A stretch of DNA of 64,000 bases from Pseudomonadales bacterium (GTDB taxonomy: Bacteria; Pseudomonadota; Gammaproteobacteria; Pseudomonadales; Azotimanducaceae), in NCBI GenBank assembly GCA_963664635.1, contig OY761542.1:2644112-2708111 (forward strand), in the 5' to 3' direction. The translations under genes and the position numbers were made by a program. The notes under the pieces were generated by a model. That model was not told the origin of the DNA. It was given only the letters and a program-made list of their open reading frames with translations, and did no database searches. Each line of letters starts with the position of its first letter. Position 1 is the stretch's first letter. This document shows, piece by piece, positions 8,064-34,274 of the stretch.

Positions 8064-8531
8064 ATGCGCGCAATTCGTCAGATCGCCGGTTTCGTCGTCG
8101 CGGTCGCGGTGACGGCCGTCGGATCGGCCTTCCTGTCCAGTCACTTCGTCCTGCGCGCCCTGGAGAGCCTGGGTGTCGATGTCCCGATCTCGGACCGGTT
8201 CGCGATGTATGGGCACGACATTCTCGGCATGGGCCCCCTTGTCGGGGCGGTGGCGGGAGTGGGGTTCCTCGTCGGGTTCCCGGTCGCCGCACTGATCGTC
8301 CGCTTTCTGCCCATGCTGCGCACCGTTGGCTACGTGCTGGCCGGGGCGGCGGCGATGGCGGTGGCGCTCGCCCTGATGGAGGCGGTCCTCGGCATGATGC
8401 CGTTGGCCGGGGCGCGGACTTCGGGCGGCCTGATCGCGCAAGCCCTGGCGGGCGCCTGCGGCGGCTATGCCTTTTCCCAGGTAACGCGGCGCCGCGGACG
8501 TGCCGGGGGACGCCCTGGTGGAGGCGGCTGA
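8064..8531 (+). CDS. hypothetical membrane protein
   Basis: 155-aa ORF with 4 predicted hydrophobic helices and GC3-rich codons. No recognisable family. Confidence 0.5.
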   Translation: MRAIRQIAGFVVAVAVTAVGSAFLSSHFVLRALESLGVDVPISDRFAMYGHDILGMGPLVGAVAGVGFLVGFPVAALIVRFLPMLRTVGYVLAGAAAMAVALALMEAVLGMMPLAGARTSGGLIAQALAGACGGYAFSQVTRRRGRAGGRPGGGG

Positions 8532-9810
8532 GCGGGAGACCGTAGAGCGGCATCTCAACAGGAACGTCGCCGGACAGCTCCTGCACGGCATGTTCGGCCA
8601 GACGGGCTTCCGGCTGGTGCAGGCGCCCACGTTCTTCCCGGCCTTCCTGTTCGAGTTGTCGGGCTCCGATCTGGTCGTCGGGGCCGCCCGCTCCCTGCAG
8701 GGACTTGGCACGGTGGTCTCGCCGGTGATAGGCGCGTCGCTGATCGGCCATCGGTCCCGCATCGTCGTCACCTCGATGGTCACGAGCACCCTGATGCGCC
8801 TGCAGGTGCTTGGCCTCGCGCTGGCCGCGTTCTTCCTGGGCGCGGGGGCCACGGTCGTTGCGTTCCTTGCCTTCATCACGCTGCTCGGCTTCTTCCAGGG
8901 CATGTCGCAGGTGGTGGTGAACTCGCTGCGGGCCCGGGTCATCCCGGTGCGGCGCCGCGGCATCGTGACCGGCGCGCGCCACTTCCTCGCGGGCTTGACG
9001 TCGGCCGCCGTGTCCTACGTTGCGGGGGCGTACCTGATCGAGAACGACGTGCTCGGAAATGGCTACGCGTCGGTGTTCCTGCTGGCCTTCGTGCTCGGGT
9101 CGCTGGGTCTCGTGGGCGTCGCCATCACGAAAGAGCCGGCGTCGACCGCGCTCCGCCCGCGCGAGTCGCCGCTGGCGGCGCTGCGGGGCATCGCGCCCCT
9201 GCTCCGGGAGGACCGGGCGTTCGCACGGTTCTTCGTGGCCCGCGCGCTCGGGTCCTGCGGCCGGATGGCCCTGCCGTTCTACATCGTGTTCGCCGCGACG
9301 CGGATGGAGGTCACCGGCGCCGTGCTCGGTCTCGTCACGACGGTGTGGATGCTCACGTCCAGTACGGCGACCCTGGCCTGGGGCGCGCTGGGCGACCGCC
9401 ACGGCCATCGCGTCGTGCTGATCGCCAACCTGGCGCTGTGGACGGCCGCCAACGCGTACATTCCGTTCGTCGATTCGGTTCCCGAACTGGTGGTCTTCTT
9501 CGTCGTGCTCGGCATCCCGTCGGGCGGCTTCAACCAGGCGGCGCAGAACATGGTGCTCGAGTTCGGCCGCGTGCACGACATTCCCCTGCGCGTCGCGGCT
9601 TCCGGGACGGCCGTCAACGTCGTGGCCGCCGCGGGACCGTTCGTGGGCGGGGTGCTGGTGGCGGTGTGGTCGTACCCCGCGCTGTTCGGGGTAACGGTCG
9701 CCCTCCAGCTTTTGGCGCTCGTGATCGTGATCGCGTGGACGCCGGAGCCGCGCTTCGCCGATATCGGCGCGGCGCCCCGCGCCGATCGCGGGGAGACCGG
9801 AGAGGGCTGA
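8500..9810 (+). CDS. MFS transporter
   Basis: 436 aa with about 12 hydrophobic segments in a 6+6 layout and a central loop (KEPASTALRPRESPLAAL). The exact start is uncertain; it overlaps the previous ORF by 32 nt. Confidence 0.8.
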   Translation: MPGDALVEAAERETVERHLNRNVAGQLLHGMFGQTGFRLVQAPTFFPAFLFELSGSDLVVGAARSLQGLGTVVSPVIGASLIGHRSRIVVTSMVTSTLMRLQVLGLALAAFFLGAGATVVAFLAFITLLGFFQGMSQVVVNSLRARVIPVRRRGIVTGARHFLAGLTSAAVSYVAGAYLIENDVLGNGYASVFLLAFVLGSLGLVGVAITKEPASTALRPRESPLAALRGIAPLLREDRAFARFFVARALGSCGRMALPFYIVFAATRMEVTGAVLGLVTTVWMLTSSTATLAWGALGDRHGHRVVLIANLALWTAANAYIPFVDSVPELVVFFVVLGIPSGGFNQAAQNMVLEFGRVHDIPLRVAASGTAVNVVAAAGPFVGGVLVAVWSYPALFGVTVALQLLALVIVIAWTPEPRFADIGAAPRADRGETGEG

Positions 9811-9826
9811 CGGGGACGCCGCCGCG

Positions 9827-10474
9827 TCAGTCCGGCCAGTGGGCCGCCATCAGGCACACGTAGCTCGACAGTACGAGCTTGTTCCGGTCGCGGCCGAGCG
9901 TCGCGAACTTCTCCAGCAGTTCCGCCGGCACGCCGTGCTCGGAGGGCCTGCGCGTGTACTGCCAGTGGGCGACATCGGGGTATCCGGCCAGGTTGACGAT
10001 CGCCAGCGGCGAGGTGGTCGCCGCGTCGCGGAACTGTCCGAGGACCCAGTGGCCCATGTGGTCGAGCGCCGGCCAGACGCCTTCGTAGGAAAGTCGGTTG
10101 AAGGTCAGCCAGTCCTCCGGCCGGATCCACCAGCGGCGCAATCCATAGACGGGCCGCCGGTCCTCGGGACGCGTCGGGCCCGTGGGGCGGTAGGCGGAGG
10201 CGAGGAGGGGGCGCGCCTCCTCGGACGCGATCCATTGCCGGGGCCCGTCCGCGCCGCCGGCCACAACGGGCTGTGCGGCCTGCCACGCATCGAAGTCCTC
10301 GAAACCGGTGAAGCACACCACCTCCTCGGCGCGAGCGCCGATCAGGCCGTTGAGCACGCAGAGGGGGCGGTGGCCGGCCGCGCCGAGCTCCGGCCACAGC
10401 GTCTCCAGTGCCCAGGCCCGGTAGTTCGGGAAAGTTCCGGGCTGGAGCCGGACGCGGCGTTCCTCGTAGATCAT
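9827..10474 (-). CDS. NIPSNAP-family protein
   Basis: 215 aa from MIYEERRVRLQPGTFPNYRAW with SD GGAGGGGG. Two NIPSNAP-like halves (second: YGLRRWWIRPEDWLTFNRLSYEGVWPAL). The upstream part of ORF 9827..10792 was rejected. Confidence 0.7.
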   Translation of the reverse strand: MIYEERRVRLQPGTFPNYRAWALETLWPELGAAGHRPLCVLNGLIGARAEEVVCFTGFEDFDAWQAAQPVVAGGADGPRQWIASEEARPLLASAYRPTGPTRPEDRRPVYGLRRWWIRPEDWLTFNRLSYEGVWPALDHMGHWVLGQFRDAATTSPLAIVNLAGYPDVAHWQYTRRPSEHGVPAELLEKFATLGRDRNKLVLSSYVCLMAAHWPD

Positions 10475-16467: not shown

Positions 16468-16662
16468 ATGACCGATGAAGAGAAGAGCGCCTTGACGCTC
16501 ACTGTGTTGCTGACCCTTGCTGTCGAAGGCATCAGGGTGGCCTTTAGTTTCGTGGATCGCAGCTTGGCGCACTGGCAGGGCCGCAAAGAAGAGGAACGGC
16601 GGCGCGCTGCGAGACAAGCGCGTGCCGACAAGGAACCTGAGGGAGAGAGCTATGTCCTCTGA
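16468..16662 (+). CDS. small hypothetical protein with one hydrophobic helix
   Basis: MTDEEKSALTLTVLLTLAVEGIRVAFSFV followed by a charged tail. GGAG lies 10 nt upstream of the ATG (an in-frame GTG at 16465 is also possible). It overlaps the next gene by 11 nt. Confidence 0.35.
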   Translation: MTDEEKSALTLTVLLTLAVEGIRVAFSFVDRSLAHWQGRKEEERRRAARQARADKEPEGESYVL

Positions 16663-17005
16663 CAATCCGTACGGGCCAGGCCGGGCCAAGCGTTGGGTGA
16701 AAGGCGGCACGAGGCTCCCGCCAGGAACGGCCGGAGAGTACCGGATCGTGAAAAAGGAGACGGGCAAGCCACACTACATCGGGGAGTCCGGAGACCTCGA
16801 GCGCCGACTGAATCAGCATACGCGTATGGGGAAGGCTGGGACCACGGACAAGAGCCACCTGTACGACGCGAGCAAGCACGAGATCACCTATCAGGTGGCG
16901 AAAGCCGGTGCATCGACCGAGGCCCGGCGAGAGCACGAGAGGAGGAAGATCGCTGAGCATGCCCCCTCCTGGAATCTGGACCGCGGGGGGAGCGGAAGGA
17001 GATGA
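16652..17005 (+). CDS. GIY-YIG domain nuclease (stand-alone, 117 aa)
   Basis: GEYRIVKKETGKPHYIGESGDLERRLNQHTR gives the GIY and YIG elements and the catalytic Arg. Downstream are EARREHERRKIAEH (Glu) and ..SWN. Start at ATG 16652 after GGGAGAGAG. Confidence 0.75.
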   Translation: MSSDNPYGPGRAKRWVKGGTRLPPGTAGEYRIVKKETGKPHYIGESGDLERRLNQHTRMGKAGTTDKSHLYDASKHEITYQVAKAGASTEARREHERRKIAEHAPSWNLDRGGSGRR

Positions 17006-18096
17006 AGACACACGACGCTCAAGGTCGGCCTGTGCTGACGTTGATTCGGGGTGGGAGACCGCTGGGTGTACAAGATCCGTCTCAAACTCATCTGGCGTCA
17101 GGTCAGGGGAGAAGTGGTCGCGCGAGTGCACGGGACAATGGGCCCCAATTGATGCCAACCGAGGACAATCGCATGTCAGAGAAAAGCAAACTTCCAGAGA
17201 GGATCGCCGGGATGGCCTTCGGCACAAACGACCGCCAGAGCATCCAACGCGTGGGCGAGCTCCATAGGGTCTCCGAGTCGCACGTCGTGCGAAGCTGCGT
17301 GGGCATCGGGCTCCTGGTGTATTCGGACATTCGTCTGCGGTCTAGGATCGCGACGGCCGCCAAGGACCATGCGACAAGTGAGCGCGCCGTGATTCAAGCG
17401 GCGGTTCGGCGGGGGTTGGAACGTGCCCGGTTTGGCACGCGCCCGAGTGTGGAGCGCCTGGACAAGGGCGCTGAGGGAGAGCAGCGGCCTAAGGGCAAGT
17501 ATCCGAAGCGAATCGCGGGGCTGGCCTTCAGCGTGGACGACTATGAAGCCGTTCGACGGATCAGGGCGAGCCGTGAAGTTTCCGAGGCGCAGGTTGTGCG
17601 AGAGTGCAGTTCGATTGGCTTGGCGATCTATGTGGACGATGAGTTGCGGAGTCGGATCGAAGATGCGGCCTTCCGGCACGGGAGGCGCGAGCGGGACATC
17701 GTCTACAGCGCCATGCAACAAGGGCTGGAGGAGGCCCTTGTCTGGCTTCGGCTGGCTCCGGTATTGCGAATCAGGGACGGACTACGGGCTGAGGATCCAG
17801 GACTTGATTTGAAGCTGACCGAGTACATTCATGCCGTTGGGAGACGAGTCCAGCCGGTGGGTCTCCCGGATCCGCTTTTCGCTGATGAGAGGGATCGAGG
17901 TTGGACGGAATCATCCTTGGAACTGCAAGGCCTCCATGAAACGTTGAGCGAGAGCCCTCTGGACGAGCATGATCGGCTGTTGGCCAGCTACCTCGACGGA
18001 CGTAGTGCTGAGGCGAAGGAGCAAGCTCGGCGATCGTTTGAAGCCCGCCGGTCCGAACTGCTTGAGCTTCGGGGGCTAGGGGACGAGGAAGTGTGA
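17002..18096 (+). CDS. hypothetical protein with two tandem ribbon-helix-helix-like modules and an acidic helical C-terminal region
   Basis: Internal duplication: ERIAGMAFGTNDRQSIQRVGELHRVSESHVVRSCVGIGLLVYSDIRLRSRIATAAKDHATSERAVIQAAVRRGLE versus KRIAGLAFSVDDYEAVRRIRASREVSEAQVVRECSSIGLAIYVDDELRSRIEDAAFRHGRRERDIVYSAMQQGLE. ATGA overlap with the GIY-YIG gene. Confidence 0.6.
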   Translation: MKTHDAQGRPVLTLIRGGRPLGVQDPSQTHLASGQGRSGRASARDNGPQLMPTEDNRMSEKSKLPERIAGMAFGTNDRQSIQRVGELHRVSESHVVRSCVGIGLLVYSDIRLRSRIATAAKDHATSERAVIQAAVRRGLERARFGTRPSVERLDKGAEGEQRPKGKYPKRIAGLAFSVDDYEAVRRIRASREVSEAQVVRECSSIGLAIYVDDELRSRIEDAAFRHGRRERDIVYSAMQQGLEEALVWLRLAPVLRIRDGLRAEDPGLDLKLTEYIHAVGRRVQPVGLPDPLFADERDRGWTESSLELQGLHETLSESPLDEHDRLLASYLDGRSAEAKEQARRSFEARRSELLELRGLGDEEV

Positions 18097-18121
18097 CGGC
18101 TAGGCGTCCGCAAAGGATCAG

Positions 18122-18814
18122 ATGACGGCGATACTTGACCACATTGGGCGCTTGTACGGTTGTTTCGACGCTGGGGACTTCGAGCGCTACGTAGTGCGCG
18201 ACATCTTGCAGGGCGACGACCTCAAGGTCGTGCTTGTGTTCGAGTCGCCCCACCGTGACGAGTTGAAGGACACCAACCCTCAGCGTCTCCCAGCGGTTGG
18301 AGCTACTGGGCGATCCGTGACGAAACTGCTCGATGGGTTGGTCCACCAGACCGGTTCGATGCGTCCACCGATACGAACTGAGCCAATAGGGCGACTGTGT
18401 GGACGACGGGACAACGGATTCGGATGGCTTGGCCTCATGAGTGCCTGTCAGATCCCGCTCCAGAAGAAAGCGTACGACGGCAATGCGGAGTTGCAGCGCA
18501 GCTATGGAAGTCTCTTGGCGGATTTGCAGACTTTCAAGGACGCACTGGATGGCGATGAGGACGCCGACGTCATTGGAGGCGATTTGGGACAAGCGATAGC
18601 GGCTGTTCTTGCGGAGCGGCTGGGACCAGTTCAGCAGCGCAGGCTGCTACTTGTACCCTGCGGCAGGGTCGCACGAGCCCTATGTGGGGCGGCAGGCGTT
18701 CATGTTGATAGCAGGTTGCCCCGAGTTCCACATCCTTTGGCACCGGATGCTTGGGGGCATGCGCCGGCGCTCGTGGAGATGGCGAGGGTGATCCGAAGTG
18801 TGCTTGAGGACTAG
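18122..18814 (+). CDS. divergent uracil-DNA-glycosylase-superfamily (UDG-fold)-like protein
   Basis: By-eye alignment to family-4 UDG motifs. VVLVFESPHRDE...PAVGATGRSVTKLL corresponds to lmlVGEgPGeeEd..PFVGkAGqLL. LMSACQIPL corresponds to NivkCrPP. LLLVPCGRVA corresponds to ivplGavA. PRVPHPLAP corresponds to HPa/s. This is inference only. Confidence 0.55.
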   Translation: MTAILDHIGRLYGCFDAGDFERYVVRDILQGDDLKVVLVFESPHRDELKDTNPQRLPAVGATGRSVTKLLDGLVHQTGSMRPPIRTEPIGRLCGRRDNGFGWLGLMSACQIPLQKKAYDGNAELQRSYGSLLADLQTFKDALDGDEDADVIGGDLGQAIAAVLAERLGPVQQRRLLLVPCGRVARALCGAAGVHVDSRLPRVPHPLAPDAWGHAPALVEMARVIRSVLED

Positions 18815-19739
18815 CTCTGGTGCGCCTCACGGTGGACAACGGTCCCGGCTATCAGCCCCGCACGTTCAGCACTCTCGAGCGCGTTTCGGGGCCGGATCGG
18901 GCTCCGGATGGGCCATTTTCGGACAACGGGCCGCGTGGCCGCGGCGGCGACCAGGCCGAAGATCGGGCGCTGCATGAGCAGGATCGGGCACGGCACAGCG
19001 GCAAGCCGGTCGGCCTGGCGGGGGACAAGCGGTCGGCGATGAGTTAGAAATTTCTCGCATCCGACCGATGCTTGTCGGTCGGTCGGCGCTGAGCGGAATC
19101 GCGGGTACCAATCCGGTCATCCTGTTCGCACCCTGTTTCGTCCTTGCGGACGGCGCCGGCACTGTTCTCGCGCTGTTCCTTTGGTCAGTGGAACGTCTGC
19201 GACGCGTTGCGCGTCATCCCGTATTGTTCAGCCGTCGCTGCGCATCGGGGCGTCTCGCTGGGTTACCCGCAGTCTGCCTGATGCGCGCTCCGGTTGTGTC
19301 AGCCGGGATGTTGCTGGAACGGTCGCCACTGGCGACTGCGCCCGTTGGTTCAGCTAGGGTCGTGCTGGGGTCCACGCGGTGGACCCTTCCCGATGATTTT
19401 GCATGGTGGGGAAGCCATGTCCGGGTCACAGATCCCGGCGTCTGTATGCTTGGTGCGGATCGTAGACGCTCCCCGGACCCAGGGCAAGCGGCGTTTGCGG
19501 GTGTGCGTGGCGCATGTTAGTCGCCATCTGTGCGCGAATCTTGGCACAGCCAGCCCCCACGCTGGAACCGGTCCAGACGCGCGCTCGGACACGGTGCGCG
19601 ACTGCGCCGGCGGCGGGCTTCGGCGGCGCCCCGTCGTTCAGGCGCTGGCACAACAAGGCACACGCCGCGGACGCACAAGGTGGCGATCAGGTGCGCGGCG
19701 GGGCTGCACGCGAGATCGTGCGCGGTTCGGCGGAAACCC

Positions 19740-19792
19740 CGCCCCGACGCCGTGGGACGCGACAGTCAGGTCCGTCCCACAGCGTCGGGGCG
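19740..19792. repeat. long hairpin (19-bp stem, 15-nt loop) in a gene-free stretch
   Basis: CGCCCCGACGCCGTGGGAC ... GTCCCACAGCGTCGGGGCG. There is a single C/A mismatch on the + strand (G-U on the minus strand). Confidence 0.8.
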
Positions 19793-19979
19793 CGCAGAGA
19801 CGCGGGAAGCGGACCGGACGCGCACCCGGACACGGCGCGGAACATCGCGGCGGGGACGCCGCCGGTGCGCCAACAATCGGTACAATGTCGCCTCTCGGAG
19901 AACGAAAGCGCTAGCAGCCTCGCGCGGGATGGCGAAGCCCGCGCCCCGTAAACGAAAGAGATGACCGTCAGGAGGGCAT

Positions 19980-20531
19980 ATGGGACAGTCCCCGATGCGC
20001 GAGAAGCTCGCTGAAGCACGGTACTTCCGGGCCGGGATGGATCGGAACGCAAACGACCTGACCCCCTTCAAATGTGAGCTGAGCGCGTTTCTGACGGCGG
20101 CGCGGACGGTGTTGCAGTACCTTCGGGATGAGTGCGGCAACGCGGGACGCCAAGGGTGGTATGACAACAAGATGGCCGATCAGATGTTCCGGTTTATGGG
20201 ATGCCAAAGGAACGTGAACATCCACGAGCGCCCCATAGAGCCTAGGCAGAACGTGACCTCGACAGTCGAGGAGCGAGTAGTTCTCAGGGATAGCTTCTCG
20301 ATCACGACGACCGATGAACACGGGAACGTCGTTCAGCACGAGGAGATCGAAACGACACTGCCAGAGGCGGTGCCGACCGAGATCGAACGAACGGTCGAGT
20401 ACCGGTTCGCTGACTGGACCGGCCAAGAAGATGTTCCCGCGCTGTGCGACAAATACGTGGGTGCGCTTGAGTCCATCCTTGATGCATGGGACCAGGTGCA
20501 GACTGGCGTAGCAGGCACGAAGGGCACTTAG
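19980..20531 (+). CDS. hypothetical protein with HEPN-like Rx4H motif
   Basis: 183 aa with SD GGAGGG 5 nt upstream. Helical N-terminal half (REKLAEARYF...ELSAFLTAARTVLQYLRDE) ends in QRNVNIHE, the R-N-x-x-x-H signature of HEPN RNases. Confidence 0.55.
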   Translation: MGQSPMREKLAEARYFRAGMDRNANDLTPFKCELSAFLTAARTVLQYLRDECGNAGRQGWYDNKMADQMFRFMGCQRNVNIHERPIEPRQNVTSTVEERVVLRDSFSITTTDEHGNVVQHEEIETTLPEAVPTEIERTVEYRFADWTGQEDVPALCDKYVGALESILDAWDQVQTGVAGTKGT

Positions 20532-20683
20532 CGGGGCGTGGCGCGACCGCGGGACCGTGGCAACCTTGCCGCGGGGGAGGGCTACTTGGCTCTGCTAGGG
20601 GTGGCGGACCGCGCGAGGGTTCTGCGGCATACGTAGTCTGCCCTTCGGCCTAGGCGTCGGCGGCATCCAAGTTTGAAGGGTCT

Positions 20684-21652
20684 ATGTTCGGGAGTGGAAG
20701 GATGGGCGACGATCGGGCGGAGGAACACTTGGTCTGGTGTCCATACACCGACAAGGAGATCCGGTTGGCCGACACCACACCAGAGCACGTGGTCCCGCTT
20801 TCGCTCGGTGGCGTTAGCGAGTTTTGCGTACGTACGGAGAAAAAGGCGAATTCGGATATTGGGTCGAAAATCGACGCACCCTTGGCGGATGAGTTCCTCG
20901 TGAAACAGCGCCGGAACCGGCTCGGCATGGTCGGGCACAGCGGGAACCACCCGGTTGTGACGTGGAAGAGTTCGGAGCTTGACTCTGGCGAGCCGGTGCA
21001 GGTGACGCTCGACCGGGGGGACGTACGAATCTGGTCGCCGGTGCGGAAGCAGTACATCGCTGTGGGAAGCGACGTGCAAATCCGCTCGAAGTGGACCATG
21101 TATGTGGACACGCCCCTTCGTTTCGCGGCCAAGGTCGCGCTGTCGGCCGGGTACTTCGTGTACGGAGATCTCTTCCGGCGCGCCGTGGCGCATGACGAGG
21201 TTCGTTTCATTATGGAGTTCGACCTACGCGGTGTGACGCCCGGCGAAAGAGCCGAACTCGAAAGACGTGCGTCGACGATGGGGGTTCAAGCAGAGGACTG
21301 GCTGCGGAGAGACGATAATCCAGATTTGGAAGTGTTCCGGTTGTTGTCTCAGGCGTACGGAAGTTCGTCCATCGCGGGCCTGATCCCTACCAAGAGCTCG
21401 CTGACCGTATTCGTCGGCGTTCTCGGGATGTACGTAGGGCTCGTTGACGCGCCGGCAGACACCACTGAGTTTCCTCTTGGTGGAACGCACGATCTGGGGC
21501 ATGTCGTGGCGCTGCGGGACGGCAAGATCGAACGACAGTCGCTAAGGGACGCGGCGCGAATGCTCGACGGAATGCTGAAGAACGGTTGGCGACCGGAGTA
21601 TGGAGAACCATCCCGTGGCGCCGGCGGTGACGCCGGAGTCAACAGTGACTAG
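20684..21652 (+). CDS. HNH endonuclease domain protein with an uncharacterised ~250-aa C-terminal domain
   Basis: N-terminal CPYTDKEIRLADTTPEHVVPLSLGG....KKANSDIG is an HNH (HNH_5-like) core. An alternative start at ATG 20702 has GGAG 7 nt upstream. Confidence 0.75.
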   Translation: MFGSGRMGDDRAEEHLVWCPYTDKEIRLADTTPEHVVPLSLGGVSEFCVRTEKKANSDIGSKIDAPLADEFLVKQRRNRLGMVGHSGNHPVVTWKSSELDSGEPVQVTLDRGDVRIWSPVRKQYIAVGSDVQIRSKWTMYVDTPLRFAAKVALSAGYFVYGDLFRRAVAHDEVRFIMEFDLRGVTPGERAELERRASTMGVQAEDWLRRDDNPDLEVFRLLSQAYGSSSIAGLIPTKSSLTVFVGVLGMYVGLVDAPADTTEFPLGGTHDLGHVVALRDGKIERQSLRDAARMLDGMLKNGWRPEYGEPSRGAGGDAGVNSD

Positions 21653-31138: not shown

Positions 31139-32038
31139 GTGGAAGCTACCGACGATCCGTTCGCCTGGGTCTGCATCCGGCATCACCGCGACGCCCGGCA
31201 GGTCAACGACGCCGCCCTGGTCCTGACCGCGGTCGGCATCGACAACTTCACGGAACGCATCCCGGAAGAGGGCGAATGGGGGCTGTTCATCCGGCGGGGC
31301 AACGCCACGGTGGCCGCGGACCAGCTCGAGCGCTACCGCGTGGAGAACCTGCCCCCCAGGATCCGCATCCCCCCGATCATCACCTTCGACAGCGGCTGGG
31401 CGGGCGTGCTCGGTTACCTGTGCATCCTGTGGGCGCTGCCGGCCCTCGAGGCCTGGGACTGGTTCGGGATGGACTGGCGCGGCGCGGGGCGCATGGAGGC
31501 GGCGCTCGTCCGGGACGGCGAGTGGTGGCGGACGATCACGGCGCTCACGCTGCACGGCGACTTGGCGCACATCCTCGGGAACTCGCTGTTCGGGGCGGTC
31601 TTCGGGCTCATGGCCGGGCGCTATCTCGGATCGGGCCTGTGCTGGCTGCTCGTGTTGCTCGCCGGCGCCGCCGGAAACGGCGTGAACGCGTGGCTGCGGC
31701 CGGACGGCTTCGCCTCCCTCGGCGCATCGACCGCGACGTTCGCCTGCGTGGGACTCACCTCCGCGTTCATCTGGCGCCGCGGCTACTTCCGCGGCCGCGG
31801 CTGGCGGCGCGGCTTCGCGCCGATCGTGGCCGGACTGGCGATGCTCGCCTTCACGGGCATGGGCGGGGCGAACACCGACGTCCTTGCGCACGTCGCCGGC
31901 TTCGCATGCGGAGTGGGCGCCGGCGTCCTCATCGCGCCGTTCGACATCCGCCGGCTCGGGCGCTCGGGGCAGCACCTCGCGGGCGCCGTCGCGGCGGTGC
32001 TGATTGCGCTTGCGTGGGTGTTTGCAGGTGAGCCCTAG
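31139..32038 (+). CDS. rhomboid-family intramembrane serine protease
   Basis: WWRTITALTLHGDLAHILGN, GASTATFACVG (catalytic Ser) and AHVAGFACGVGAG (catalytic His). N-terminal cytoplasmic domain. GTG start is uncertain. Confidence 0.8.
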   Translation: MEATDDPFAWVCIRHHRDARQVNDAALVLTAVGIDNFTERIPEEGEWGLFIRRGNATVAADQLERYRVENLPPRIRIPPIITFDSGWAGVLGYLCILWALPALEAWDWFGMDWRGAGRMEAALVRDGEWWRTITALTLHGDLAHILGNSLFGAVFGLMAGRYLGSGLCWLLVLLAGAAGNGVNAWLRPDGFASLGASTATFACVGLTSAFIWRRGYFRGRGWRRGFAPIVAGLAMLAFTGMGGANTDVLAHVAGFACGVGAGVLIAPFDIRRLGRSGQHLAGAVAAVLIALAWVFAGEP

Positions 32039-32089
32039 CGCGACCTGACGGTCGCGTTGGAAGTTTCGCTGTGGCGCGAAACTTCTACG
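32036..32089 (+). repeat. REP-like double-hairpin element, copy B (abuts the stop codon of the rhomboid gene)
   Basis: TAGCGCGACCTGACGGTCGCGTTGGAAGTTTCGCTGTGGCGCGAAACTTCTACG. The first 25 nt, including the TAG, are identical to copy A. The second stem carries a compensated A-T versus G-C change. Confidence 0.9.
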
Positions 32090-32230
32090 GCGCGAGCTCC
32101 TGGAATCTCTCCGTTCGGACGAGCAAGCCCGCCCTACCGGGTCACTGCCGGTCCCCGGGCGGGGCAGCGCACGTAGCGTTCCGTGCTACGGTAACGGCGC
32201 GGGTGGTCGCCGGGCTGACGGAGACGCGGC

Positions 32231-33412
32231 GTGGGATTGAACAGAATTCGCATCCAGAATTACCGTGCGCTGGCGGATGTCGAGTTGGCAGTGCGGCCAA
32301 TCAACGTGTTGTTCGGACCCAACGGATCGGGAAAGTCAACGCTACTCGATACCCTGTATTTCTTCCGGGATTGTGCCATCCGGGGCGTGGAGGTCGCGTC
32401 GTCGGAAAGGGATCATGGCATAGGACTCCTTTGGGACGGGGCCACCAACGGGGATCGCATCTCCGTGGAACTCGACGGCAGCGGCGTCACCTATGGCCTG
32501 TCGTTCTCGCTGGCGGCGGGCAGGATCGACCCGTTTCCCGGCGAGCGGCTCTTCTCCAAGGGGCGCAACCTGACGCTAATTGATCGTCGGTCCGGCGCCG
32601 ACACCGCGTCGCTGTTCCATGCCCAAGTGGATGAGACGCTCGAGCTCCCGTTGCGCGACCCGGACAAGCTGAGTCTTGGGGTGTTCCTGGACTTCAACCA
32701 CGGCGATTCCGAAGCGGGACATCTGGATCGCTTGCTGCACTTCGTCCGGCTGTACCACTCTCGCTCCTTCCGCCTCCATGTCCTCAAGCGCACCGGTTCC
32801 GAAAGTAGTCACCAGACCAGGCTTTGGGATTTGGGCGACAACGCTTGGTCAGTCCTGCGGAATGTTCAGGACAAGCGCAACGTCGACGCCAGATACAAGA
32901 CGATCATGGCGTACATGACCGAAGCGTTCCCGGCGCTCGACGACATCGTGCTCGAACAAACCGGACCGTCGTCGGTCTATGCGAGTTTTGTGGAGAAAGG
33001 CAGACGGGAAGCCATCCTCGCTTCGGGCGCATCGGACGGAGTTTTGCAGTTGCTCCTCTTGCTCATTGCGCTCTTCTCCGAGGGCGATCGAGACGCGGTA
33101 TTGCTGTTCGACGAGCCCGAGGTCTCTCTGCACCCCTGGGCGATTGCCGTGTTGGCGCGGGCGGTGAAGTGTGCCGCGGCGGGCTGGGGTAAACAGATCT
33201 TTGTCGCCACCCACTCGCCCGTGCTGATCAGCCAGTTCGAGCCTGATGACATTCTGGTCTCCAGCATGGAGCCGAGCGGCGCCCGGTTCGAGCGCGTTTC
33301 GGAAGTTGAGAACTTGGCGGACCTCATAGCGGAATACGCGACCGGCGCGCTCTACATGTCCGAGGCGATCGGGCCGCAGAGCTCCGACTCCACTGAAGCG
33401 CCCAAAACGTAG
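32231..33412 (+). CDS. ABC-type AAA ATPase (AAA_21/AAA_15-like, OLD/PARIS AriA-like architecture)
   Basis: IRIQNYRALADVEL....NVLFGPNGSGKSTLLD (Walker A), SDGVLQLLLLL (signature-like), VLLFDEPEVSLHP (Walker B/D-loop), VATHSP (H-loop). GTG start after GGAG. Confidence 0.85.
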   Translation: MGLNRIRIQNYRALADVELAVRPINVLFGPNGSGKSTLLDTLYFFRDCAIRGVEVASSERDHGIGLLWDGATNGDRISVELDGSGVTYGLSFSLAAGRIDPFPGERLFSKGRNLTLIDRRSGADTASLFHAQVDETLELPLRDPDKLSLGVFLDFNHGDSEAGHLDRLLHFVRLYHSRSFRLHVLKRTGSESSHQTRLWDLGDNAWSVLRNVQDKRNVDARYKTIMAYMTEAFPALDDIVLEQTGPSSVYASFVEKGRREAILASGASDGVLQLLLLLIALFSEGDRDAVLLFDEPEVSLHPWAIAVLARAVKCAAAGWGKQIFVATHSPVLISQFEPDDILVSSMEPSGARFERVSEVENLADLIAEYATGALYMSEAIGPQSSDSTEAPKT

Positions 33413-33435
33413 TGGGGTCCGCGGGCAGTGACGAG

Positions 33436-34179
33436 ATGCCGTGGCGATTCCGTCGCGTTGGTCTGATCGTGACGGGCCAGACCGAGGAGCTTTGCTTGCC
33501 TGATCTTTTTCGTCGGCTAACGTCGGAGGGCACATGCTCGTTCACCGTGATCAGACGGGTCGACCAGCGCTCGCCCGTCGAGTCTCCGAAGCGCAAGTTG
33601 CGGATGATCGGTACCGGGAAGGTCATTCCGAGCAAAGACGAGGAGCAGATTGGCGCCCCCGCACGGCGGTTCCTGCTGCGGCAAGGAGGCGACTACGTCC
33701 TCCTCATCGACGACCTCGAGGCGGATCGGGCCGCAAGGGTCGATGGCATCTTCCGCAGGTACCGGCTCGCGCTGACCACGATGTTGCCCGCGGAACTCCG
33801 CTCGAAGGTGGCGGTGCACTTCTTCGTCAACATGCTCGAGGCTTACTACTTCGCGGACGCGGCGGCCATCAACAGCGTGCTTGGTACGGAGTTCGAGGAC
33901 TTCACCGGTGACGTGGAGACGATTCAACATCCGAAGAACGAGTTGAAGTCGCTCTATCCCCGATTCGACGAAATGGAGCATGGCGTGGAGATCGTCGGGA
34001 AACTGGACATCGCCCACGTACTTGGGCCCCGAGATGTCTGCGCATCCCTCAGGACGATGTTCACATGGGCCGGCGAGGCCGTCGGCGTGACGGACTGGCT
34101 ACTGGAAGGCCGGCTGTTCGACGCCACGAAAGATCAAATCGAAGCCCTGCGCCAAGCGCTGCACGGAAGCGGGGGGTGA
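33436..34179 (+). CDS. DUF4276-like protein (Toprim-like putative nuclease partner of the ATPase)
   Basis: MPWRFRRVGLIVTGQTEE resembles the EGQTEE start of DUF4276 proteins (recollection). Later YVLLIDDLEAD supplies a DxD-like acidic motif. It starts 24 nt after the ATPase stop; the ORF-track GTG at 33412 is an alternative. Confidence 0.65.
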   Translation: MPWRFRRVGLIVTGQTEELCLPDLFRRLTSEGTCSFTVIRRVDQRSPVESPKRKLRMIGTGKVIPSKDEEQIGAPARRFLLRQGGDYVLLIDDLEADRAARVDGIFRRYRLALTTMLPAELRSKVAVHFFVNMLEAYYFADAAAINSVLGTEFEDFTGDVETIQHPKNELKSLYPRFDEMEHGVEIVGKLDIAHVLGPRDVCASLRTMFTWAGEAVGVTDWLLEGRLFDATKDQIEALRQALHGSGG

Positions 34180-34274
34180 GCACGCCCTCCGCAACGCGGC
34201 GGTGGTCGCGATCCCATGGATGGATCGCATCGAGGGGTGGGTCTTCGGGGCTGGATCGGTCGCGCGACGCCTCC

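Follow-up and report, generated by a model that had tools for sequence, protein, structure and literature searches.

A divergent HEC-01-like pair of an ABC ATPase and a DUF4276 protein, a candidate defence module in an exchangeable cassette of an Azotimanducaceae bacterium

Introduction

Modules that pair an ABC ATPase with a Toprim protein, as seen in OLD, Gabija, PARIS, the retron effectors, HEC-01 and Mad3/4, are among the commonest building blocks of bacterial immunity; for their DUF4276 branch, phage tests have been conflicting and there is no biochemistry so far. Two overlapping genes in a 64,000-nucleotide (nt) stretch of contig OY761542.1 (assembly GCA_963664635.1, positions 2,644,112 to 2,708,111 of the forward strand) from a Pseudomonadales bacterium of the Azotimanducaceae, here termed the window, raise the question of whether they encode such a module and, if so, whether it belongs to a system that already has a name. 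We propose, at a probability of roughly 0.6, that the pair is a self-contained, translationally coupled defence module in which an ATPase would gate a nuclease; it is related to Mad3/Mad4, PARIS, AbiL and OLD/Gabija. The two genes are:

32231..33412, + strand: gene 1, GTG start, 393 aa, ABC-type ATPase, HEC-01A-like
33412..34179, + strand: gene 2, GTG start, 255 aa, DUF4276 (Toprim-like) protein, presumed nuclease effector

Both open reading frames (ORFs) lie where the initial annotation had located them, and all the peptides that it quoted were confirmed by translation. The stop codon of gene 1 and the start codon of gene 2 share one base (TAGTG), and this 1-nt overlap suggests that the translation of the two is coupled.

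The ATPase

Gene 1 had been credited with a complete ABC/SMC-type motif set, and each element of it was recovered from the translation:

32315-32341, + strand: Walker A, GPNGSGKST
33032-33055, + strand: ABC signature, SDGVLQLL
33101-33136, + strand: Walker B and D-loop, LLFDEPEVSLHP, including LLFDEPE and SLHP
33206-33220, + strand: H-loop, ATHSP

The suggested search with PF13304/PF13175-type hidden Markov models returned both Pfam AAA_21 (E=6.8e-32, full length) and AAA_15 (E=2e-21), and in an alignment of 34 homologues the key residues are invariant, namely K35, D269/G270/Q273, D294/E295 and H328, with S/D/G/Q of the signature among them. A profile search of the PDB sequences retrieved the OLD protein of T. 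scotoductus (6P74, E=1e-13) along with GajA, AriA, PtuA and Rad50, and Foldseek searches initiated with the AlphaFold2 (AF2) model of the protein (predicted template modelling score, pTM, 0.81) recovered PtuA, OLD 6P74, Rad50 and the SMC heads, with E-values of 1e-13 to 1e-11 and a probability of 1.0 each. The protein is short and lacks a long coiled coil, and its 33 closest homologues are 68-86% identical to it and nearly all 391-395 aa in length. Sequence and predicted structure place it as an ABC ATPase of the OLD/AriA/PtuA-like defence group. The resemblance of the ATPase to RecF, Rad50 and the SMC heads could also be read in favour of a housekeeping module for DNA repair or maintenance, where an ABC ATPase would act with a Toprim partner as in RecF/RecR or in an SbcCD-type complex; the closest characterised homologues, however, are all defence proteins, and we return to this alternative below with the evidence from distribution.

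The DUF4276 protein and its altered catalytic motif

The second protein bears the following motifs:

33457-33489, + strand: VTGxxE (VGLIVTGQTEE), with T21 at 33472-33474 and E25 at 33484-33486
33709-33720, + strand: DDLE, read from the translation, within the LLIDDLEAD peptide of the initial annotation
33832-33846, + strand: MLEAY
33910-33918, + strand: DVE
33928-33936, + strand: HPK

Its resemblance to DUF4276 proteins, which the initial annotation had noted, is borne out by the Pfam model proposed for checking it (PF14103; E=1.2e-8, residues 22-213), where it scores 35.9 bits and the cut-off is 30.2; the same model matches 33 of the 33 aligned homologues. Like the AAA_21 match of gene 1, this goes well beyond what chance would give. 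Profile-profile comparison with hhalign relates the gene 2 subfamily to ordinary DUF4276 proteins with 88% probability (E=3.3e-6, 177 columns). At 255 aa the gene 2 product is longer than the ordinary HEC-01B proteins (189-222 aa); it has an extended C-terminus, and residues 50-74 form a long loop.

The fold is where the link to the Toprim domain appears. The AF2 model, a confident one (predicted local distance difference test score, pLDDT, 90.6; pTM 0.88), has four strands, beta1 at 14-20, beta2 at 42-49, beta3 at 95-102 and beta4 at 133-139, followed by a helical C-terminal half. In the PDB its top Foldseek match is the C-terminal Toprim and helical region of BpOLD, the OLD protein of B. pseudomallei (6NK8; E=1.5e-3, probability 1.0, template modelling (TM) scores 0.37/0.45), OLD entries fill four of the top five places, and in a search of viral folds an RloB-like protein comes first (E=4.9e-4), followed by topoisomerases; these are modest scores, with E about 1e-3 and TM 0.37-0.47. 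No match to the Toprim, RloB, DUF4435 or PF20469 models was found for gene 2 or for its 33 aligned homologues, and hhalign aligned a single stretch between the subfamily and P2 Old, namely the first Toprim motif, whose register was the expected one. The earlier suggestion of a Toprim-like protein draws modest support from the fold, through the OLD and RloB-like matches, and none from sequence profiles, among which no significant Toprim match was obtained. We regard the assignment as plausible on the strength of these modest fold matches, and it agrees with Payne et al. and with PMC12065111.

The initial annotation had further seen in these motifs the E...DxD arrangement of Toprim nucleases, and this reading needs to be amended. 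The first motif reads IICEGQTEE, ILVEEPSME and FIVEGDTES in the plasmid-borne HEC-01B proteins and LLVEGKTET in P2 Old, as against LIVTGQTEE in gene 2: the Glu that had been flagged (E25/E26) is not the canonical one, whose position at the end of strand 1 is held by T21, and E25 is the +4 Glu. The equivalent of the DxD motif is present as the variant D101-L-E103, preceded by a D100 specific to the subfamily, whereas the last D of the LEAD peptide is not conserved. D100, D101 and E103 are invariant in the subfamily and form a DDxE at the end of strand 3; of these, D101 lines up with D72, which is invariant in ordinary DUF4276 proteins, while D100 and E103 are acids that are not found at this site in the latter. 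The full hhalign register pairs T21 with E9, E25 with E13, D101 with D72, E143 with E129, E169 with E161 and K175 with K173. In BpOLD, metal A is held by the canonical Glu, E400, together with D455/D457, and metal B is served by E404, T506 and E508; K562 acts as a catalytic lysine (PMC6755086). Judged by its position in the motif, E25 of gene 2 corresponds to E404 of BpOLD, and E143 and K175 would be the counterparts of E508 and K562.

The substitution is a near-fixed feature of the subfamily: the canonical position is occupied by Thr in 224 of 228 members (Ser in three, Lys in one) and by Glu in all 120 of a sample of ordinary DUF4276 proteins. It is a reason to consider that the DUF4276 protein of this subfamily might not be a nuclease at all, and that it is instead a nucleic-acid-binding or adaptor subunit, or a protein with some other chemistry, in a pair that binds, sequesters or signals. 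The same possibility gains from the E26A mutant of AriB, altered at the matching canonical Glu, which is inactive (PMC12409363). Nevertheless, we hold it to be unlikely: E25, D101, E143, E169 and K175, which are common to ordinary DUF4276 proteins, are invariant or nearly so, the additional strand-3 acids D100 and E103 look like compensation and not decay, the ratio of nonsynonymous to synonymous divergence (dN/dS) of gene 2 is 0.16, and the single mutant E400A of BpOLD remains active (PMC6755086). To us the site looks like one that has been rebuilt rather than one that is dead, with the Glu lost and the acidic cluster enlarged.

The common Acinetobacter/Pseudomonas/Vibrio-type DUF4276 clade (P0392-P0509) has the canonical EGQTEE in the first motif, but its strand 3 ends with only a single acid (FFDFYG). 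Set beside the TGxxE plus DDxE of the gene 2 subfamily, the acidic residues of the two groups seem to be distributed in a complementary manner.

The deposited version of the gene 2 product (P0001, 227 aa) begins at residue L29, so that the invariant W11, the strand GLIVTG and E25 are all missing from it. In favour of the GTG start at 33412 are this W11 and the fact that the N-terminus is conserved in the nearest homologues; because the alignment of the homologues supports this GTG, the deposited start looks mis-called.

Relation to HEC-01

It had been stated that a DUF4276 version of the ATPase-Toprim logic was not known as a characterised named system. This is now out of date: an ATPase with a DUF4276/TOPRIM protein constitutes HEC-01 (Hma-embedded candidate 01 of PADLOC-DB), described as an ABC ATPase paired with a TOPRIM protein, found embedded in Hma systems (10.1101/2024.01.29.577857), and also the Mad3-Mad4 pair of MADS. 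Against the HEC-01A model PDLC04182, gene 1 scores E=1.1e-47, with residues 3-380 on model positions 4-400 of 406. Gene 2 weakly matches three HEC-01B models, the best at E=6.6e-5 and 20.8 bits, which may lie below a PADLOC call. By comparison, plasmid-borne true HEC-01 pairs reach 1e-145 to 1e-182 for the A protein and 1e-79 to 1e-99 for the B protein. An exhaustive profile search of 1.84 billion representative proteins retrieved, at E<=1e-3, no more than 329 that are related to gene 2. By these sequence comparisons the window pair represents a divergent, compact and separate subfamily of HEC-01, unmodelled by PADLOC and NCBIfam.

We found three true HEC-01 pairs, all of them on plasmids. One is located on a small mobilisable Acinetobacter plasmid next to VapBC. 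Another, on a Meiothermus plasmid (L085 3929-5826), is part of a type I restriction-modification (R-M) operon, between a DUF4433/macro-domain pair and hsdR. The third (L086 4980-6664) is shared by about ten E. coli IncHI1B-type plasmids, where it is found inside BREX-1, between pglX and pglZ.

Distribution and linkage of the subfamily

Linkage was counted over 80 loci from species-level genomes. At all 80 the two genes share a strand, with the ATPase gene upstream, and at 77 they are directly adjacent; at one of the three non-adjacent loci (L007, Vicinamibacterales) they are separated by a 1.9-kb insertion (8100-10000) with an IS66-like transposase gene (8468-9949, minus strand). The identities of the two genes co-vary across loci (r=0.68). 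Confirmed loci number only 151 among 185,579 species genomes, in more than 10 phyla, and their hosts include Gammaproteobacteria, Planctomycetota, Cyanobacteria, Poribacteria, Chloroflexota, Acidobacteriota, Myxococcota and others. The GC content of the pair is below that of its flanks in 63 of 69 loci, by a mean of 7.3 points, and it tracks the GC content of the host (r=0.93). The distribution is accessory and horizontally moving.

No neighbouring gene recurs across phyla, and recurrence is confined to lineages: the neighbours of the pair are shared by nine Poribacteria genomes (L036, L041, L046, L048, L064, L069, L075, L077, L079) and by six Microcoleus-type cyanobacterial genomes (L037, L057, L060, L062, L065, L078), and within these two groups the pair is a long-term resident and not a rapidly moving island. 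The 68 immediate neighbours at 34 non-redundant loci are mostly metabolic genes, with three transposases among them.

Replacement of the cassette at the locus

Two metagenome-assembled contigs (L082 and L081) carry the pair at the same locus as the window, and the alignment with the first of them delimits an exchangeable unit:

31984..34274: exchangeable cassette, 2.29 kb, with the last ~18 rhomboid codons, the leader, both genes and the 3' spacer

Between the window and L082, identity amounts to 96-99.9% for the flanking proteins and 98.2% for the flanking DNA, as against only 84% for the ATPase, 76% for the DUF4276 protein and 78.4% for the DNA of the pair. Along the alignment the identity is 98-100% up to about 31983, 56-88% within the cassette and >=95% from 34275 onwards. 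Identity changes sharply at both ends of the cassette, on the left at about 31984 and on the right exactly at 34274/34275, at the stop codon of the convergent monooxygenase gene. Synonymous divergence (dS) between the window and L082 amounts to 1.06 for the ATPase gene and 0.87 for the DUF4276 gene, and to 0.05-0.12 for the flanking genes; since dS is ~1 in the pair against those flank values, the alleles of the pair are much older than the split of the two genomes. Both genes are under purifying selection, because their dN/dS is only 0.09 (ATPase) and 0.16 (DUF4276). Faster protein evolution was considered as the cause of the low identity and rejected, as dS too is ~10-fold above that of the flanks.

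The rhomboid gene overlaps the left end of the cassette: at 31984-32038 its C-terminal tail differs between the window and L082, and the rest of the gene is 99-100% identical in DNA.

In L081, which is more distant and whose flanking proteins are 82-92% identical to those of the window, the ATPase gene is intact (393 aa) and its dS (0.68) is close to that of the flanks (0.54-0.65). The DUF4276 gene (9182-9646) has lost about residues 101-200 in frame, leaving a 154-aa ORF, and downstream synteny is broken, with genes that differ from those of the window. The simplest reading of these alignments is that the module would have been resident at the locus from before the divergence of these lineages, and that one or more of them exchanged it for a divergent allele by recombination through the flanks.

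Exchange as a unit at a fixed locus is also what one might look for in a selfish addiction or competition module of a toxin-antitoxin-like kind, which would stabilise itself or exclude rival elements, with phage defence not its primary role. Under this alternative one can likewise place the decay of gene 2 with persistence of the ATPase in L081, the insertion sequence (IS) element splitting the pair in L007, the ordinary HEC-01 beside VapBC on a small mobilisable plasmid, and the finding that mad5 of MADS can be deleted only if mad2 or mad3 is deleted with it (10.1101/2023.03.30.534895). We judge it improbable nonetheless, given that the subfamily is not found in plasmid or phage collections, that the borders show no integrase, repeats or tRNA, that the position of the pair is conserved across species in Poribacteria and Microcoleus, and that such a mechanism would anyway share ground with defence by abortive infection.

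The same data bear on the housekeeping alternative raised above. High sequence conservation, purifying selection on both genes, and a locus that has stayed in place across three related genomes, as it also has among Poribacteria and in Microcoleus, could all be expected of a repair or maintenance module. Yet the pair occurs in <0.1% of species genomes scattered over many phyla, it is AT-richer than its host at the great majority of loci (63/69), genomes that are otherwise near-identical differ by its replacement with a divergent allele, and its integrity has been lost through the internal deletion of gene 2 in L081 and the IS-split operon in L007. Such a role is in our view very unlikely.

An ATPase-gated nuclease as the proposed function

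We return to the reading that we favour, that of an ATPase-gated nuclease defence module. What has been observed of the pair comprises the domain identities, the invariant residues of catalytic type, the strict pairing and the overlap, the purifying selection, the accessory spread and the replacement of the cassette; the defence role, the nuclease activity, the DNA or RNA substrate, the trigger and the direction of control are what we infer. In the mechanism that we envisage, by analogy with the related systems, the ATPase would dimerise or oligomerise through its ATP-sandwich head, hold the DUF4276 partner and serve as both sensor and gate. An infection cue, together with the binding or hydrolysis of ATP, would then release or activate the DUF4276 partner. 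The latter would cut nucleic acid at a metal-dependent acidic site, for which E25, D100/D101/E103, E143, E169 and K175 are the candidate residues, and thereby stop the replication of a phage or mobile element, possibly at a cost to the cell.

In favour of this proposal, true HEC-01 pairs are found within BREX-1, as part of a type I R-M operon, and beside VapBC. Moreover, a cold-seep study reports that one HEC-01 cluster gave E. coli B protection from one or more of the phages T4, T5 and T7 (10.1101/2024.09.26.614923). MADS, for its part, depends on both mad3 and mad4 for defence, and its mad5 could be removed only along with mad2 or mad3 (10.1101/2023.03.30.534895).

Several observations weigh against it, and the weakest links are the mixed results with HEC-01, the weak association with defence islands and the missing canonical Glu. 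The HEC-01 representative tried by Payne et al. gave no protection against their phages (10.1101/2024.01.29.577857). Known defence genes occur only as single cases among the 68 immediate neighbours (DrmA, a type I methyltransferase, a type II methyltransferase and a type I-U Cas), the subfamily is mostly situated outside defence islands, and searches of phage and plasmid collections for it returned no match. At the active site, Thr takes the place of the canonical Toprim Glu, at the very position where E26A abolishes cleavage by AriB (PMC12409363). The hhalign comparisons of gene 2 with P2 Old were not significant (E=0.078 and 0.28), and a profile search of the PDB sequences with gene 2 finds nothing. 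Finally, the conservation of the ATPase, with its 33 closest homologues of near-fixed length, is unusually high for a sensor.

The islet and its surroundings

The view that the pair sits as an isolated islet was upheld. GC content is 0.62 at the pair and 0.69 in the flanks, and third-codon-position GC (GC3) is 0.78 and 0.81 in the two genes against 0.86-0.94 in the flanking genes. Upstream are genes for an SPFH/Band_7 protein, NfeD, a pyridoxal-phosphate (PLP) enzyme, a beta-lactamase-family hydrolase and a rhomboid protein, and downstream those for a luciferase-like monooxygenase (convergent), a DUF3604 protein and a resistance-nodulation-division (RND) pump; all these neighbours are housekeeping genes. 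A search of the 64-kb window for tRNA genes found none, no convincing direct or inverted repeats flank the pair, and none of the neighbouring genes at the borders of the islet codes for an integrase.

Two further features lie between the rhomboid gene and the pair:

32039..32230, + strand: upstream leader of the pair, 192 nt, a region not conserved in L082
32053-32092: imperfect hairpin (inverted repeat I13), 17-nt arms and 6-nt loop, shortly after the rhomboid stop codon

The hairpin may be the terminator of the rhomboid gene; it lies inside the variable cassette, has no T-run and does not occur in the allele of L082. The leader yielded no sigma-70 consensus promoter, terminator-like sites occur at background level only, and an Rfam scan of the cassette for structured RNA (retron non-coding RNA, riboswitches) gave no match of note.

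A second patch of low GC3 (0.70-0.79) is present in the window at 16517-21652, ~11 kb upstream of the pair. Among its ORFs are those for a GIY-YIG protein (16517-17005, E=1.1e-5), for two proteins without a Pfam match, and for proteins of 364 and 322 aa that weakly match helix-turn-helix (HTH) and HNH_5 models, respectively, the latter at 20684-21652. This patch may be another foreign or defence islet.

Significance

A more far-reaching interpretation, which we put forward tentatively and consider more doubtful than probable, is that the subfamily is a distinct, unmodelled immune module whose effector site has been rebuilt, with Thr for Glu and a compensating DDxE, and whose deeply divergent alleles are exchanged at a fixed site as a balanced polymorphism of specificity. 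If this were true, the rebuilt site could mean a metal geometry, substrate or chemistry different from that of OLD, AriB and ordinary HEC-01B. A natural Glu-to-Thr variant with extra acids nearby could reveal which residues of the Toprim site catalysis needs, and the swapping of a whole defence-type cassette for a deeply divergent allele bears on how diversity of immune specificity is kept up within a species. The pair also adds to the DUF4276 branch a clean subfamily that stands alone and that present detection models overlook or recognise only in part.

Comparison with known systems

The initial annotation placed the pair within the logic of OLD, Gabija and PARIS. The part of this that stands is that gene 1 belongs with the OLD/AriA/PtuA group and that the architecture is a split ATPase with a partner of plausibly Toprim-like fold; the pair itself is neither PARIS nor OLD/Gabija.

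PARIS too has a split ABC ATPase and Toprim-type effector, from which the probable logic of sensing and release is taken, and the AriA structures share the C-terminal ATPase motifs of gene 1, the AriA matches of which come from generic AAA_21/AAA_15-type models. Its effector AriB is, however, a DUF4435 protein with the canonical Toprim Glu (E26) that cleaves tRNA, and an assignment to PARIS was rejected for want of a DUF4435 (PF14491) match in gene 2. To OLD and Gabija GajA there is resemblance on both sides, gene 1 being nearest to OLD 6P74 and GajA by profile and gene 2 having 6NK8 as its best PDB fold. Those proteins, in contrast, are single fused polypeptides with the OLD-like_TOPRIM domain (PF20469), which P2 Old carries, whereas the window has two genes, no PF20469 match and Thr in place of E400 of BpOLD; as the genes are not fused and PF20469 is not matched, this assignment was rejected as well.

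Burman et al. place AbiL and MADS3-4 among the systems of ABC ATPase plus TOPRIM (PMC11464382). AbiL (AbiLi/AbiLii) and RloA/RloB are split pairs of an AAA_21 ATPase and an RloB-type Toprim-like protein; AbiLi matches gene 1 with E=6.6e-21 and the best viral fold for gene 2 is an RloB-like protein, but gene 2 lacks an RloB Pfam match by sequence.

In MADS, where mad3 and mad4 are each required for defence (10.1101/2023.03.30.534895), Mad3-Mad4 likewise combines an AAA15/21 ABC ATPase with a DUF4276 protein, Mad4 (PMC11464382, PMC12065111). The Mad3 models match gene 1 partially (PADLOC E=1e-22, NCBIfam E=5.6e-30), but the score on NCBIfam MAD3 (NF047739) is 104.8 bits against a cut-off of 420, gene 2 has no mad4 match, and no methyltransferase or other mad gene is found among the neighbours in the window. 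On these grounds (a Mad3 score under the cut-off, no mad4 match, no mad operon genes nearby), MADS was rejected.

HEC-01 remains the system that the pair resembles in its two-gene architecture and order, with an AAA_21/AAA_15 ATPase followed by a DUF4276/TOPRIM-like protein. From it the pair differs in its far lower scores, the Thr in place of Glu, the DDxE at strand 3 and the longer gene 2, and also in standing alone among housekeeping genes and not within Hma, R-M or BREX. This kind of pairing, HEC-01 or Mad3/4-like, is already known, catalogued and biochemically uncharacterised, and the window pair is not a new kind of system; what is new here is a divergent member, unusual in its catalytic motif and clearly marked by past replacement of one allele by another.

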